NCBI GenBank assembly: GCA_963799005.1
Contig: CAWCVK010000001.1
Coordinates: forward strand, 1,820,066 to 1,884,065
Origin: Candidatus Dormiibacterota bacterium
Lineage (GTDB): Bacteria > Chloroflexota > Dormibacteria > Aeolococcales > Aeolococcaceae
Reading direction: 5' to 3'
DNA length: 64,000 nt
In this document: one piece after another, positions 23,570-30,533 of the stretch
Position numbering within the stretch: position 1 is the first letter of the stretch
Layout: each line of letters opens with the position of its first letter
Translations under genes and position numbers: made by a program
Notes under the pieces: generated by a model
The model's database searches: none
Told to the model about the DNA's origin: nothing
What the model saw: the letters and a program-made list of their open reading frames with translations, nothing else

Positions 23570-24700
23570 TCAGGCGACGTGGATGGGCTCGCGCGCCGGC
23601 GGCGTGGGCGCACCGCGCACGTCGAGCCCCGGGTCCTGGCCGGCGATGTCATCCTCGGCGGGGTCAAGATCGGAGGGGTCGCGGTGGCGGCGGAACAGCA
23701 GCGTGCTGCCGATGCCGGCGACCGGCAGGGAGACGGCGAGGTCGATCGCCTGCAGGGTGAGGCCGGCGCCGACCGCGAGCCCGCCGCCGACGCCTTCGAG
23801 CAGCAGCGCTCCCGCCCACCACGCCTGTCCGGTGCCGATGCCCGCGATCCCCTGGATCGGGATGGTCAGCAGCAGCGTGCGGATGGACAGCACGAACCAC
23901 GTTTGCCAGAAGCCGAGGTGGAGCCCGACCATGCTCATCAGCGCCGCGTACTGCACGGCGGTGGCGAGCCTGCAGAAGATCGTGCTGCCGACCAGGTTCG
24001 CCCAGCGTGCCCGGCTGTTGAGCTCGTCGAGCTCGGCCTCGGCTCTCGCCGCAAGGGACGCCAGCCTCGGCACCCGAGCCGCGAGCCGGGTAACGAGCGT
24101 CCGCGGCCCCGGAATGATCAGTGAGAGGAGCACCCCCAGCCCGACGATGAAGGCGCCCGCGGCCGCCAGGATGACCGGTGGCGGCTCCACGGTCGTGGTG
24201 AAGAAGGACGCCACCACGGCGACCAGCGACAGGCTGACGACGTCGAGCACCCTGGCGACGATCGCGCTGCCCGAGCCGCGGGCGACGCCCACCGAGAACC
24301 GGGTCCGCGCCAGGGCGACGAAGGTGACGTCGGCGGAGGGGCCGGGGAGCAGCAGCCCAGCCCCCCATGAAGCGGCGGTCGCGCCGAGGAGTTCGCGTGC
24401 GCTGCCGCGACGCCTCGGCAGGAGCGCCGCGAAACGCCAGGCCCTCCCGACGAGGAAGCAGGCGGCGCCGAGCGCCGCGATGGCGACGGATCCAACCGAG
24501 GGATTGATGCCCTGCCAGCGGACGTTGTGCCCACCGAGCAGCCGCCAGGCGAGCAGCAGGACGAGGACGGTGACGACGCTTGTGATCGCCGCCCGGAGCA
24601 GAAGCCCACGGCGAGCAGAACCCGAGATCGACACGAAAGCTGATTGTCGCTCTTTTGTCCGCCCCCGGGGCGATCCGTCGTGCCCGTCAGGTGCGTTCAT
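23570..24700 (-). CDS. flippase-like membrane protein (UPF0104 / LPG-synthase-TM family)
   Basis: Polytopic, about 8 TM; divergent from the sqdB operon. Family call is from overall pattern only; start is ATG 24700 or 24763. Confidence 0.6.
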   Translation of the reverse strand: MNAPDGHDGSPRGRTKERQSAFVSISGSARRGLLLRAAITSVVTVLVLLLAWRLLGGHNVRWQGINPSVGSVAIAALGAACFLVGRAWRFAALLPRRRGSARELLGATAASWGAGLLLPGPSADVTFVALARTRFSVGVARGSGSAIVARVLDVVSLSLVAVVASFFTTTVEPPPVILAAAGAFIVGLGVLLSLIIPGPRTLVTRLAARVPRLASLAARAEAELDELNSRARWANLVGSTIFCRLATAVQYAALMSMVGLHLGFWQTWFVLSIRTLLLTIPIQGIAGIGTGQAWWAGALLLEGVGGGLAVGAGLTLQAIDLAVSLPVAGIGSTLLFRRHRDPSDLDPAEDDIAGQDPGLDVRGAPTPPAREPIHVA

Positions 24701-24840
24701 TTCTCGCTTTTCGGGCGGTCGATTGACGGGCTTCTGTGGCCACTGGGAGGACGGTGTAGGCATAATCCCAGGTCATCACCCCTTTGTAAGGTCTTCGCTG
24801 CGAAGGTCGCAGGGTCCCAACACTCGCAGGAGCTTCTTGC

Positions 24841-26067
24841 ATGCGCAACAGAACGGTGATCGTGCTCGGCGCGGACGGGTATCTCGGCTGGCCGCAATCG
24901 ATGCACCTGTCGAGCCAGGGCTACCGCGTGATCGCGGTGGACAACCTCGTTCGCCGTCGCTGGGATCTCGAGTGCGGCACCTCGTCGCTCATTCCGATTG
25001 CAACCATGGAGCGGCGTGTCGAACGCTGGCGCGAGCAGGGTCGCGGCGAGATCGAGTGGCGGCTCGTCGACCTGACCGATGCCGAAGCCCTCTCGGAGCT
25101 GATCGCGTCGACGCAGCCGGACGCGGTGGTGCACTTCGCCGAGCAGCGTTCGGCGCCGTTCTCGATGATCGACCGCGAGCACGCAGTCATGACCCAGCTC
25201 AACAACGTCGCCGGGACACTCAACCTGCTCTTCGCGCTGCACGAGCACGCGCCGGCGTGCCACCTGGTGAAGCTCGGCACGATGGGGGAGTACGGGACCC
25301 CGAACATCGACATCGAAGAAGGCTTCATCACCATCGAGCACAACGGCAGGAGTGACACCCTGCCGTACCCGAAGCTGCCGGGAAGCTTCTACCACCTGTC
25401 CAAAGTGCACGACAGCCACAACATCCATTTCGTGTGCCGCGCGTGGGGGATCGCCGCCACCGACCTCAACCAGGGTGTGGTCTACGGCTGCAACACGCCG
25501 GAGACGACGCTGCACCCCGAGCTCGCGACCAGGTTCGATTACGACGGCATCTGGGGCACCGTGCTGAACCGGTTCATCGTGCAATCGGCGATCGGCAAGC
25601 CACTCACCGTCTACGGCAGCGGCGGTCAGACGCGCGGATTCCTCGACATCCGCGACACCATGGCCTGCGTCCAGCTGAGCATCGAGCACCCCGCCACAGC
25701 CGGGGAGTTCCGCGTCTTCAACCAGTTCACCGAGCAGTTCTCGGTGCTCCAGCTGGCCGAGCTCGTGCGTGACGCGCGAGCCGCGCACGGGGGTGAGACC
25801 ACCATCGATCACACGCCGAACCCGCGCTTCGAGAAGGACACGCACTTCTACAACGCCAGGCATCAGTTGCTCGTCGACCTCGGCCTCGAGGCGCACAAGC
25901 TGCGGAGCACGCTCATCAACTCGGTCATCGAGACCGTCGAGCAGCACATCGATCGCGTGGATCTCTCCCAGGTGGGCGTGTCCGACGTCGAATGGACGAC
26001 CGGGCGTGTTCGGGCGGCCACCGGCAAGGCCCAGCTCACGGCTCCAGCAGCGGAGACGGTGGCGTAG
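24841..26067 (+). CDS. sqdB: UDP-sulfoquinovose synthase (SQD1/SqdB/Agl3 type SDR)
   Basis: Near-colinear with remembered plant SQD1 blocks: '[12 protein letters not shown]', '[15 protein letters not shown]', '[38 protein letters not shown]', '[14 protein letters not shown]', '[11 protein letters not shown]'. Confidence 0.92.
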
Positions 26068-28352: not shown

Positions 28353-29588
28353 GCGCCATCGGCTTCATCGCGCGTGCCCAGCGGCACCACGTGGATCGCC
28401 TCCTGCTCGGGGCGCTCATCGTGGTCTTCGCCGGCTTCGCCGTCGCGTACACGCGCATCACCCCGATCGGGGCGTCGCCCGACGAGCTGTCGCACCTCAA
28501 CTACATCAACGGCATCGCGGACCACCTCCGGCTGCCGCCGGCAGGCGAGCCCGAACGTCAGCAGCCGCCCCTCTACTACCTCCTGGGTGCGATCGTCGCG
28601 AAGGGAACGGGGAACGATCCACGCCTGGTGCGGTTGCTCTCGGTGGTCCTCGGCGTGCTCACGATCCTCGCCGTCCACGCCGTGGCCCGGCGCCTCTTCC
28701 CGCGCAGGCCGGCGCTCGCGGTTGGCGCCGCCGCCCTGGTGGCACTCCTCCCCGAGGCGCAGTACCTGGCAGGTTCGATCAACGACGACAACCTCGCCTG
28801 GCTCGCCGGCGCTCTGCTCGTGCTCGCCGGGGTCGTCGTGATGCAGAGCGACGTGCTCACGCCGCGCCTTGCGCTCGGTGCCGGGATAGCCGTCGCCCTC
28901 GCCGCGCTGGCCAAGGAAACCGTGTGGCTCCTGGCGCTGCTGCTCCTGGCGCTGGTCGTCGTGCGCTTTTGGCGGCAGCTCCGCGCCGTCCAGGCGGCGG
29001 CGCTGGTCGTGCCGGCGATCGTGCTCGCCGGCTGGTGGTTCGTGCGCAACGCGGTGGTCTTCGGGAGCCCGCTCCCACCCCTGCACCCGATCACCGCCCA
29101 GCGCCAGGTGCTCGAACTCGCTCGCCCAGGTGAGCGCCTACCTGTCCGCTACCGCGGTGAGCCTGGTGGGGATGTACGGGAACGGCGCCAAGCTGGTGAA
29201 GATCTCGATTCTCGGGGTGCAGCCCCTGCCCGGCTCGGTGGCCGTCGCCGCGATCGCCGTCATCATGATCGCCGCCTGCGTCGCGGTGGCGCGTTCGTGG
29301 GCGACGTGGGACGCAGTGCGGCGCCGGGTCGCGCTCCTCCTCCTGGCTGTGCTCCTGGTTGCGGCGGTGCAGTCGGTGCTGAACTCCGCGACCTTCGATC
29401 TCCAGCCCCAGGCGCGCTACCTGCTCGTGGCTGTGGCCGCTGGGGCACCGATCCTCGCGTGGACGATCGCGTGGCGGCGAACCGGCCCGCTCTCGATGGC
29501 TCGGGGCGCGGCGATCGCGGGGCTGGTGGCGCTCGCGCTGGTGCTCGATGTCTCCGGCCTGATCACCGCGGCACGCATCGCCGCGTGA
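28349..29588 (+). pseudogene. second GT-C fold membrane glycosyltransferase; frame switches near 29121-29130
   Basis: GTGA overlap with the upstream gene; 'ASPDELSHLNYI', 'QQPPLYYLLGA'. After '...QRQVLELA' this frame turns Arg/Gly-rich, while TM-like sequence continues in track ORF 29130..29588. Confidence 0.6.
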
Positions 29589-30533
29589 TCATCGGGCTTC
29601 GCGGCGGAAGCTCTCAAGAGTGCGCGCCAGTCCGTCGTCGAGGCTGACGCTCGGGTTCCATCCCAGGCGATCCGCCGCGAGCGAGTTGTCGAGGGCGCTG
29701 CGCGTCACCTCGCCGCCTGGGAGAGGCTCGTGCTCGGGCTCCCCGTGGAAGGCGGCGAGCGCACAGAGGCGCCGCACCAGATCGCCGATCCCGGTCTCGC
29801 GACCGGTGCCGATGTTGAGCGCGCCGCTCACGTCCGAGGCGAGCCCCAGCATGTTGGCCGCGACGATATCGCCCACGTAGGTGAAATCGCGGGTCTGGGC
29901 GCCGTCGCCGCGGATCACCGGCGCCCTGCCGGCGAGCAGCCGGTGAATGGAGATCGCAACCACGCCCGCCTCGCCCGTGCCGTCCTGCCCCGGGCCGTAG
30001 ACGTTCGCGTAGCGAAGCGCGAGCCCGTCGAGGGCGCCGGCCCGCGTGAAGTGCTCGAGGTAGTGCTCGATGCTGAGCTTGGCAGCGCCGTAGGGCGAGC
30101 GCGGCTGAGGCGGCTCGTCCTCGGGCGTCGGCAGGCGGCGGGTCGCGCCATAGAGCGCGCCGCCGGAGGATGCGACCACGACCCGCCGGCACCCGGCGGT
30201 GATCGCCGCGACGAGCACGCTCACCGTTCCGAGCACGTTGATGCGCGCGTCCGCTGCCGGCTCGCGCCAGGATCGATTGACCCCGCCCTGCGCTGCCAGG
30301 TGAAGGATCGCCGCCGGTTTCCAGGATTCGATGGCGGCGCGCGCCGCCTCTCCGGCGACATCGGCCACCTCGAGGCGAGCGCCGCCGGGGAGCGGCAGGT
30401 GGGAGCGGTGACGAAGATCGTCGACGACGAGCACCTCCGCTCCGGATTCGAGCAGCGCCTCGACGCTGTGGACGCCGATGAAGCCCGCGCCCCCGGTCAC
30501 CGCAACCCGTCGGGCGTGCAGCTGCGCGGCCAT
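29589..30533 (-). CDS. NAD-dependent epimerase/dehydratase (GalE-like)
   Basis: 'VAVTGGAGFIGVHSVEALL', catalytic 'YGAAKLSIEHY'; ATG shares a base with the upstream stop. Confidence 0.88.
   Translation of the reverse strand: MAAQLHARRVAVTGGAGFIGVHSVEALLESGAEVLVVDDLRHRSHLPLPGGARLEVADVAGEAARAAIESWKPAAILHLAAQGGVNRSWREPAADARINVLGTVSVLVAAITAGCRRVVVASSGGALYGATRRLPTPEDEPPQPRSPYGAAKLSIEHYLEHFTRAGALDGLALRYANVYGPGQDGTGEAGVVAISIHRLLAGRAPVIRGDGAQTRDFTYVGDIVAANMLGLASDVSGALNIGTGRETGIGDLVRRLCALAAFHGEPEHEPLPGGEVTRSALDNSLAADRLGWNPSVSLDDGLARTLESFRREAR

Follow-up and report, generated by a model that had tools for sequence, protein, structure and literature searches.

A UDP-sulfoquinovose synthase linked to a polyprenyl-phosphate-type glycosyltransferase and GT-C transferases in Dormibacterota: a candidate system for placing sulfosugars on the cell surface

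The window analysed here is the whole of a 64,000-nt stretch of DNA from a Candidatus Dormiibacterota bacterium (contig CAWCVK010000001.1; G+C ~69%). Between positions 23570 and 30533 it carries a cassette of six genes, in which a UDP-sulfoquinovose synthase of the SQD1 type is followed by a family 2 glycosyltransferase (GT2) and two membrane glycosyltransferases of the GT-C class (GT-C1 and GT-C2), with genes for a flippase-like protein and a GalE-like epimerase on either side. The cassette probably encodes a three-component extracytoplasmic glycosylation system (we put the probability at about 0.6), for which the donor would be polyprenyl-phospho-sulfoquinovose or its 4-epimer, the corresponding sulfofucose. 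A route to the envelope through polyprenyl-phospho-sulfoquinovose had been proposed in a sequence-only reading of this DNA; as a predicted function it is supported by each of the in silico tests which that reading had suggested. The six open reading frames (ORFs) of that reading are all present where it placed them:

23570 to 24763, minus strand: flippase-like membrane protein (PF03706, the LPG_synthase_TM / MprF flippase-domain family), from Pfam
24841 to 26067, plus strand: UDP-sulfoquinovose synthase, orthologue of SQD1/SqdB/Agl3, 408 residues, from the match to 1QRR and the catalytic residues
26073 to 26816, plus strand: peripheral GT2 like ArnC, GtrB, dolichyl-phosphate mannose synthase (DPMS) and PpgS, 247 residues, no transmembrane (TM) helix, proposed polyprenyl-phospho-sulfosugar synthase, from PF00535 and PDB and fold matches
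26817 to 28352, plus strand: GT-C1, PMT_2, annotated GT39 or ArnT-like, 511 residues with a C-terminal soluble domain, from Pfam and AlphaFold2 (AF2)/Foldseek
28349 to 29588, plus strand: GT-C2, DUF2142/PMT_2, ~412 residues when intact, frame broken here, from Pfam and DNA alignment
29589 to 30533 (ORF open to 30617), minus strand: GalE-type nucleotide-sugar 4-epimerase, an extended short-chain dehydrogenase/reductase (SDR), 314 residues, from the match to 4zrm and the start in relatives

The plus strand carries SQD1, GT2, GT-C1 and GT-C2 in that order. The flippase-like gene is divergent upstream, and the GalE-like gene is convergent downstream with its stop abutting that of GT-C2. The TAG stop of SQD1 is followed after 5 nt by the GTG start of GT2 at 26073, the TAG stop of GT2 directly abuts the GTG start of GT-C1 at 26817 (a gap of 0 nt), and GT-C1 and GT-C2 overlap by the 4 nt GTGA at 28349–28352. 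The abutting GTG and the GTGA overlap had been read correctly, as had the shortness of the gap between SQD1 and GT2. The spacing at these junctions is that of translational coupling.

The SQD1-like protein gives an end-to-end alignment with SQD1 of Arabidopsis (1QRR), over residues 5–387 (E 5e-153, 513 bits), and any other solved SDR scores 37 bits or less in the same PDB sequence search. Its T147, Y184, H185 and K188 align with T145, Y182, H183 and K186 of SQD1, of which Thr145, Tyr182 and Lys186, together with His183, form the catalytic set (PMC4388408). The protein carries '[18 protein letters not shown]' and 'SFYHLSKVH', its GxxGxxG site for NAD is GADGYLG, and the blocks VVHF, EQRSAP, GTMGEYG and YHLSK are conserved with respect to SQD1. 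The first three of these, which house the residues H95, R101 and M145 essential in Sulfolobus Agl3 (PMC4388408), are identical. The NCBIfam models for RmlB and GalE match at 1e-11 or weaker. The SDR had been taken for one of SQD1 type, and from the 513-bit match and the catalytic Thr/Tyr/His/Lys it is, on these sequence comparisons, a true SQD1 orthologue. It shares 95% identity with proteins encoded by metagenome-assembled genomes (MAGs) of Candidatus Dormibacterota, palsa_834 and palsa_851 from the palsa of Stordalen Mire, in a cluster that JGI names 'UDP-sulfoquinovose synthase'. The proteins of the window itself are on record from a contig of 2.18 Mb. The closest homologue in an isolate is from Alicyclobacillus (62% tblastn identity).

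The GT2 matches ArnC (9hwj) at 1.3e-21 over residues 8–211, GtrB at 8e-10 and archaeal DPMS at 5e-9 in the PDB sequence search, and the alignment with ArnC spans the acceptor-binding half of the protein. In the AF2 model (pLDDT 90) the best 24 Foldseek matches in the PDB are all ArnC, GtrB or DPMS (TM-score 0.58–0.77), after which ranks glucosyl-3-phosphoglycerate synthase. The earlier assignment as DPM1/GtrB/ArnC-like is thus borne out in both sequence (1e-21 to ArnC) and fold. Three elements are invariant in the orthologues, namely DDxS, a DxD-Q motif (D98-x-D100-Q102) and the basic HxPRxxGxRSGxR. The hydropathy profile contains no hydrophobic segment, and the chain ends at residue 247 without the C-terminal TM hairpin of GtrB, ArnC and archaeal DPMS; all 12 aligned orthologues are equally short. 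Relatives without TM helices are PpgS, Ppm1-D2 and human DPM1. From its sequence and predicted fold, the GT2 is a distinct subfamily of polyprenyl-phosphate glycosyltransferases.

GT-C1 is recognized by Pfam as PMT_2 (32.3 bits, above the cut-off). A PDB sequence search returned zero matches, and structure prediction was therefore needed. The AF2 model (pLDDT 80.6, pTM 0.83) is closest in Foldseek to ArnT (5f15 and 5ezm, E 4e-8, TM-score 0.56–0.59), followed by AglB/STT3, AftA/B/D and Pmt4, and the best 29 matches are all GT-C enzymes. The fold is, as modelled, a GT-C fold closest to ArnT, and together with the Pfam match this agrees with the PMT_2/ArnT-like identity first given to it. Enzymes of the ArnT/PMT-like GT-C class have a conserved acidic motif in their first extracytoplasmic loop; here a motif EPHWYTDEA.Y, placed after TM1 by a hydropathy scan and the model, is nearly invariant, and D28-E29 is present in at least 90% of 33 sequences. 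GT-C2 scores 49 bits as DUF2142 and 42 bits as PMT_2 (the latter above the cut-off), and has at least 10 TM segments, with D45-E46 after TM1 invariant in 10 orthologues. Relatives encode it intact with 412 residues, and it is optional within the cassette family. In locus L007 a second GT-C2 (DUF2142) paralogue (8676–9887) lies directly upstream of SQD1, with a flippase-like match further upstream (7527–8615).

The linkage of these genes is maintained in other genomes. SQD1 was searched in one genome per GTDB species and the best 80 loci were examined; 18 of these have a GT2 orthologue (39–88% identity) within a few kb. Most of the 18 cassettes also have a PF03706 protein and at least one protein of a GT-C family (PMT_2, DUF2142 or DUF2079). 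Their hosts are Dormibacterota, Chloroflexota and a few unclassified or doubtfully labelled MAGs, and the gene orders include FLIP< SQD1> GT2> GT-C> GalE<, FLIP> GalE> SQD1> GT2< GT-C< and SQD1> FLIP< GalE> GT2< DUF2079> (FLIP, flippase-like gene; arrowheads give direction). The reverse search, a metagenome scan with an alignment of the GT2 orthologues, gave 56 informative loci, those with enough flanking sequence. SQD1 is beside the GT2 in 48, and among these a flippase-like gene is found in 31, a GT-C in 35 and a GalE-like gene in 36. The neighbourhood of sqdB, GT2 and GT-C, which the sequence-only reading had wished to see surveyed in relatives, is therefore kept across Dormibacterota and Chloroflexota. 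Its recurrence in dozens of independent loci with varied gene orders places the arrangement far beyond chance.

The genes might nonetheless be accidental or merely syntenic neighbours in one lineage, with no common pathway. The closest relatives (90–95% identity in SQD1) do mostly keep the gene order of the window (L007 has its additional GT-C2 copy upstream), and taken alone this could be simple synteny. However, the same five families occur in at least five gene orders or strand arrangements at 39–70% identity, the flanking genes vary between loci, and fused versions exist. This explanation is very improbable, and is effectively refuted by the rearranged and fused forms.

The fusions are of two kinds. 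Natural fusions of GT2 with GT-C1, of 752–809 residues, include HEX6538653.1 (Dormibacterota) and TMF15844.1 (Chloroflexota); they count as evidence, since they turn up in many assemblies that are independent of one another and differ in origin (JGI, ENA, Logan and NCBI). On one 1.48-Mb contig they give a minimal cassette, FLIP< SQD1> [GT2-GT-C1]> GalE<. Joining a cytoplasmic GT2 to the cytoplasmic N terminus of a GT-C is topologically sensible. In the second kind (L166/L167, 4322–6043) a DedA/VTT domain is N-terminal to the GT2 in a 573-residue protein, followed by GalE, SQD1 and a PMT_2 GT-C. DedA proteins are undecaprenyl-phosphate flippases (PMC12893004, PMC11474028). Both kinds suggest that the GT2 works on a polyprenyl-phosphate carrier that feeds the GT-C. 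Apparent fusions of SQD1 with GT2 (P0002, P0005, P0006 and P0009) were rejected as evidence, since they look like long-read assembly indels; at the only such locus inspected (L004/L010) the Pyr_redox and ECH genes are split and the SQD1 alignment ends at residue 359.

The contig of L166/L167 bears the label Candidatus Nitrosotalea and gave a Pfam match to eIF-1a. An archaeal version of the cassette was rejected on the basis of its GC content of 69% and a 61-residue protein that fits bacterial IF-1, so the contig is probably bacterial and its label a binning error. The label Micrarchaeaceae of L035 (GC 62.5%) is doubtful on similar grounds. High-GC cassettes or SQD1 genes also stand under Klebsiella, Micrarchaeaceae and Saccharimonadales labels (L034, L041, L035 and the clusters of P0127 and P0363), which are probably taxonomic mislabels of MAG contigs.

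The flippase-like protein had been described as a divergently encoded UPF0104/LPG-synthase-TM protein, and it is indeed a member of PF03706 (46.8 bits against a cut-off of 33.4), with a score under the cut-off for TIGR00374. It contains at least six hydrophobic segments, and its true start may be an internal ATG at ~24700. Homologues fall into two clusters (c8 and c44), both confirmed as PF03706 by Pfam, and are present in most related cassettes. A consensus scan of the intergenic region between the two divergent genes gave the following site, ~75 nt ahead of the start of SQD1:

24737 to 24766, plus strand: promoter-like site TGGCCA-18-CATAAT, weak

Membership of PF03706 is also the starting point for an alternative in which the GT2 is a new sulfoglycolipid synthase, placing sulfoquinovose on diacylglycerol, a hopanoid or some other lipid of the membrane, with PF03706 flipping the glycolipid and the GT-Cs extending or using it. 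According to its Pfam description the family is that of the MprF flippase domain, which moves a modified membrane lipid. MprF flips lysyl-phosphatidylglycerol, and in hopanoid gene clusters the GT2 HpnI is accompanied by HpnL, a member of PF03706, a pairing that counts for this alternative. In addition SQD1 lies beside a GT21-type lipid glycosyltransferase in acidobacteria, so that synthases of sulfoquinovosyl lipids beyond SqdX and SqdD may exist. Against this, the best matches of the GT2 in sequence and fold are all polyprenyl-phosphate glycosyltransferases, aligned through the acceptor-binding half, and its fusions to GT-C in many genomes and to DedA in others fit a polyprenyl-phosphate carrier cycle. 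Moreover GT-C enzymes characteristically use donors linked to polyprenyl phosphate (PMC8035078, PMC11127046). We consider synthesis of a glycolipid improbable.

The GT2 had been singled out for a check as a possible synthase of sulfoquinovosyl diacylglycerol (SQDG); it has no likeness to SqdX (GT4) or SqdD (GT8), and its nearest solved structures are polyprenyl-phosphate glycosyltransferases. No GT4 or GT8 SQDG synthase was found by Pfam in the cassette loci, nor in the window among 28 of the larger called ORFs that the Pfam scan covered (several further ORFs lie outside it). Among the best 80 GTDB loci a SqdX-like GT4 stands beside SQD1 only in cyanobacteria, Alicyclobacillus and Caldilineae.

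Other neighbours of SQD1 were seen in the same set. In Acidobacteriota (L052, L057, L061, L063, L065, L069, L071 and L078) it adjoins a GT21-type membrane glycosyltransferase (ceramide-glucosyltransferase-like) without SqdX or SqdD, possibly a third kind of sulfoquinovosyl-lipid synthase. In L036 and L037 (labelled delta proteobacterium), L042 and L075 (Acidimicrobiales) SQD1 is found with several GT2 genes (cluster c14), or with two GT2 genes and an unannotated 765-residue protein. These are further contexts for the use of UDP-sulfoquinovose that do not involve SqdX.

The GalE-like protein matches the UDP-glucose 4-epimerase of Thermotoga maritima (4zrm; E 1e-72, 249 bits, ~47% identity as estimated by eye), and is recognized by Pfam as Epimerase / GDP_Man_Dehyd (29589–30617, minus strand), with 128 bits against TIGR01179, below its cut-off of 262. 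The most likely start is 30533, as called in relatives. It has the motifs GGAGFIG, SSGG (with the serine) and YGAAK (YxxxK). The sequence GEVTRSALD was tried as a sulfonate-binding motif and rejected, as the GalE proteins of T. maritima, Thermus and 7ys8 share G-[DE]-[VL]-x-[RK]-S. The sequence-only reading placed this gene correctly as convergent downstream and treated it as a mere neighbour. It is instead a core member of the cassette, with a homologue near the GT2 in 17 of the 18 GTDB cassettes and in 36 of the 48 SQD1-positive metagenome loci, and also in six of the eight that lack SQD1. The gene therefore tracks the GT2 and not SQD1.

A number of observations weigh against transfer of a sulfosugar by the cassette. 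The SQD1-like protein scores 464 bits (E 3e-139) with the NCBIfam equivalog model NF041015, below the cut-off of 575, although the direct match to plant SQD1 appears as the stronger evidence and outweighs the failed threshold. The GT2 scores 80 bits with the NCBIfam ArnC model (cut-off 529) and 47 bits with that for PpgS (cut-off 370). Its whole-length NCBIfam alignments are with ArnC, PpgS, AglJ and a haloarchaeal dolichyl-phosphate hexose transferase, all far under their cut-offs, so that its specificity for sugar donor and acceptor is not readable from homology. Members of PF03706 are not known to flip polyprenyl-phosphate sugars. The GalE-like protein resembles an ordinary GalE, and its alignment contains no residue suggestive of a sulfonate pocket. 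In GT-C2 a single extra A near 29115 shifts the frame (DNA alignment with L001, L005 and L006); the second GT-C was thus rightly read in its position, GTGA overlap and family, but is not one intact ORF here. A 1-nt insertion also occurs at 31034 in the neighbouring proline dehydrogenase gene (Pro_dh, 30533–31517, minus strand), which is present as two ORFs of 161 and 171 residues compared with 328 residues in relatives. Since both genes carry such insertions, the frameshifts are probably indel errors of the assembly and not pseudogene decay. Finally, SQD1 and the GT2 do not always occur together. In eight of the 56 informative loci no SQD1 lies within at least 4 kb of the GT2. A GalE-like gene is retained in six of these eight and a GT-C in five, so the GT2 could act with a non-sulfonated UDP-hexose. 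Conversely, nine Dormibacterota loci have SQD1 without a nearby transferase (L015, L016, L018, L020, L021, L023, L024, L028 and L029).

These separated genes bear on a further alternative, in which the sugar handled is an ordinary hexose (polyprenyl-P-Gal, -GalNAc or -Glc). The GalE-like protein, GT2, flippase-like protein and GT-C would make up a three-component system for it, and SQD1 would feed a transferase encoded at another place in the genome, such as an SQDG synthase. It is favoured by the occurrence of the GalE-like gene with the GT2 irrespective of SQD1, by the resemblance of the epimerase to T. maritima GalE, by the nine lone SQD1 genes, and by a compact GT2-GalE-GT-C1 module without SQD1 or a flippase-like gene (L093, 7956–11440; also L095 and L096), which in L093, where alone the context was read, is placed between nuoLMN and the succinate dehydrogenase (sdh) genes. 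There is also a precedent in PpgS, which makes polyprenyl-P-GalNAc from UDP-GalNAc and polyprenyl-P (PMC3485146). On the other side, SQD1 adjoins the GT2 in 48/56 informative loci and 18/18 GTDB cassettes, and the two are separated by 5 nt within one operon. Apart from the GT2, the minimal cassettes encode no cytoplasmic transferase that could take UDP-sulfoquinovose, and no GT4 or GT8 is present in the cassettes or among the scanned proteins of the window. The lone SQD1 genes, found in the context trypsin-like protease, SQD1, thioredoxin-reductase-like and cobalamin-adenosyltransferase-like (neighbours named by eye), form one subclade nested within the diversity of cassette-type SQD1 in a neighbour-joining tree. 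This subclade is sister to the SQD1 of the L011 cassette, whose GT2 and GalE are closest to those of the SQD1-less modules. The nesting suggests a secondary split of one system and not an independent function; the simplest reading of these sequences would be that lone SQD1 genes and SQD1-less modules belong to one system, whose genes have become separated in some genomes. A system confined to an ordinary hexose is in our view unlikely, if less so than a glycolipid synthase.

As to the epimerase, a conversion of UDP-Gal to UDP-Glc upstream of SQD1 would serve no obvious end in a cassette for biosynthesis, which leaves two options; either the GalE-like enzyme supplies the donor of the GT2, or the system handles an ordinary hexose. 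If it supplies the donor, then with SQD1 in the pathway the reaction would be UDP-sulfoquinovose to UDP-6-sulfofucose. As a core component that tracks the GT2, the enzyme would most likely interconvert these two, and the sugar transferred could be the 4-epimer. We propose tentatively that the GalE-like protein is a UDP-sulfoquinovose 4-epimerase, such that UDP-6-sulfofucose is the product of the cassette, and sulfofucose, alone or with its epimer, reaches the surface of Dormibacterota and Chloroflexota in soil and peat by way of polyprenyl phosphate; we regard this as possible, and clearly less probable than the three-component scheme as a whole. According to a paper of 2025, the pathway by which sulfofucose is made has not been identified (PMC12421959). 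If our proposal is correct, the cassette would provide the first such pathway, and also the first sulfosugar donor linked to a lipid carrier in any organism.

The proposed pathway would run as follows. SQD1, by homology, would convert UDP-glucose and sulfite into UDP-sulfoquinovose. The GalE-type epimerase would then act on a UDP-hexose of the pathway, most likely interconverting UDP-sulfoquinovose and UDP-6-sulfofucose; this is the weakest step. The peripheral, inverting GT2 would load the sulfosugar onto polyprenyl monophosphate at the cytoplasmic face to give polyprenyl-P-beta-sulfosugar, a role assigned because of its family membership and fusions. The PF03706 protein, replaced in some relatives by the DedA domain fused to the GT2, may translocate the charged lipid-linked sugar. 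Lastly GT-C1, with GT-C2 where present, would transfer the sugar outside the membrane, and as GT-C enzymes invert, the product should be alpha-linked. Candidate acceptors are an envelope polymer, a lipoglycan or a protein; the 64-kb window gave no pointer to the identity of the acceptor. The outcome would be a surface decoration that is permanently anionic and free of phosphate.

In its overall construction the cassette resembles the three-component periplasmic systems, reviewed for GtrA/GtrB/Gtr*, ArnC/ArnEF/ArnT and CsbB/GtcA/YfhO (PMC11127046, PMC8035078). A GT2 that charges polyprenyl monophosphate, a membrane translocator and a GT-C are encoded together in each, and the nearest solved structures to the GT2 and GT-C1 are ArnC/GtrB and ArnT respectively. 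It differs in that the linked nucleotide-sugar enzyme is a UDP-sulfoquinovose synthase and the predicted donor is sulfonated, and in that the candidate translocator is PF03706 or a GT2-fused DedA/VTT domain instead of GtrA, SMR/ArnEF or MATE. In addition the GT2 has no counterpart of the two TM helices with which GtrB and ArnC end, and GT2-GT-C fusions occur among the cassettes. The galactosamine system of Mycobacterium tuberculosis, comprising the GT2 PpgS (Rv3631), the small membrane protein Rv3632 and the GT-C Rv3779, is described together with Ppm1 in PMC3485146. It likewise combines a short GT2 that uses a UDP-sugar with a separate membrane partner and a GT-C, and decorates a wall polysaccharide. 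Residues 7–202 of the cassette GT2 align with positions 1–195 of the 226 in the PpgS model, but it is not an orthologue (47 bits vs 370), and the sugar and the family of the membrane partner differ.

SQDG synthesis, by SqdB/SQD1 with SqdX (GT4) or SqdD (GT8), shares the first enzyme with the same catalytic residues. In the cassette, however, its partners are a polyprenyl-phosphate-type GT2 and GT-Cs in place of a GT4 or GT8, which suggests a product other than SQDG on the outward side of the membrane. Archaeal sulfosugar N-glycans are alike in directing UDP-sulfoquinovose to a surface glycoconjugate and not a lipid, and there the 4-epimer sulfofucose is natural. In the archaeal route sulfoquinovose joins a dolichol-pyrophosphate glycan on the cytoplasmic side, and AglB transfers the whole en bloc. 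By contrast, the cassette is predicted to use a single sugar linked to a monophosphate, with an ArnT/PMT-like GT-C and a bacterial host. Of the archaeal examples, the N-glycan of Sulfolobus contains sulfoquinovose and depends on the Agl3 pathway (PMC4388408), whereas that of Thermoplasma contains 6-C-sulfofucose (Vinogradov 2012, as cited in PMC12421959). A Thermoplasma SQD1 homologue, NP_394533, is listed in PMC4388408.

Full-text literature searches (sulfoquinovose with polyprenyl, undecaprenyl, Dormibacter or 4-epimerase, and the three-component literature) found no such system, in agreement with the sequence-only reading, which knew of none in bacteria. The parts are individually recognizable; publicly, the SQD1-like proteins are annotated by NCBI as 'NAD-dependent epimerase/dehydratase', the GT2 proteins as 'dolichol-phosphate mannosyltransferase' and the GT-C1 proteins as 'GT39/ArnT family'. 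It is the system as a whole that is undescribed.

Within the window, an Rfam scan of 22000–32000 found no riboswitch and no other RNA, and no sulfate-assimilation genes were present among the window proteins scanned against Pfam. At 51355–53326 (plus strand) an RmlA-like nucleotidyltransferase, whose C-terminal domain is a left-handed beta-helix (LbH), is encoded together with RmlD (dTDP-4-dehydrorhamnose reductase), a hint that this genome also specifies envelope glycans containing rhamnose. The protein encoded at 34697–35824 (minus strand) combines a hydrophobic segment at the N terminus with a long region rich in Ala and Gln that resembles a coiled coil, and with a CHAP domain (peptidoglycan hydrolase) at the C terminus. 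Two adjoining convergent genes for class-I tRNA synthetases (Trp/Tyr family, PF00579) lie at 54873–57206.

To our knowledge the phylum Dormibacterota has no cultured member, so that envelope hypotheses derived from genomes are valuable. Among the organosulfur compounds of the biosphere sulfoquinovose is a major one, and its known fate in bacteria is the membrane lipid SQDG. If the proposed function is true, the cassette would define a new class of bacterial sulfonated glycoconjugates, and would widen the three-component scheme to an anionic sugar and to new families of translocator (PF03706 and the DedA fusions). It also provides candidate enzymes, including a possible UDP-sulfoquinovose 4-epimerase and a polyprenyl-P-sulfosugar synthase. 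Bacteria specialized on the degradation of sulfoquinovose and sulfofucose exist (PMC12421959), and the surface glycans would be new sources of sulfoquinovose, and perhaps of sulfofucose, in the sulfur cycling of soil and peat. For the organism itself, we may speculate that an anionic surface polymer free of phosphate would be ecologically suited to nutrient-poor soils.

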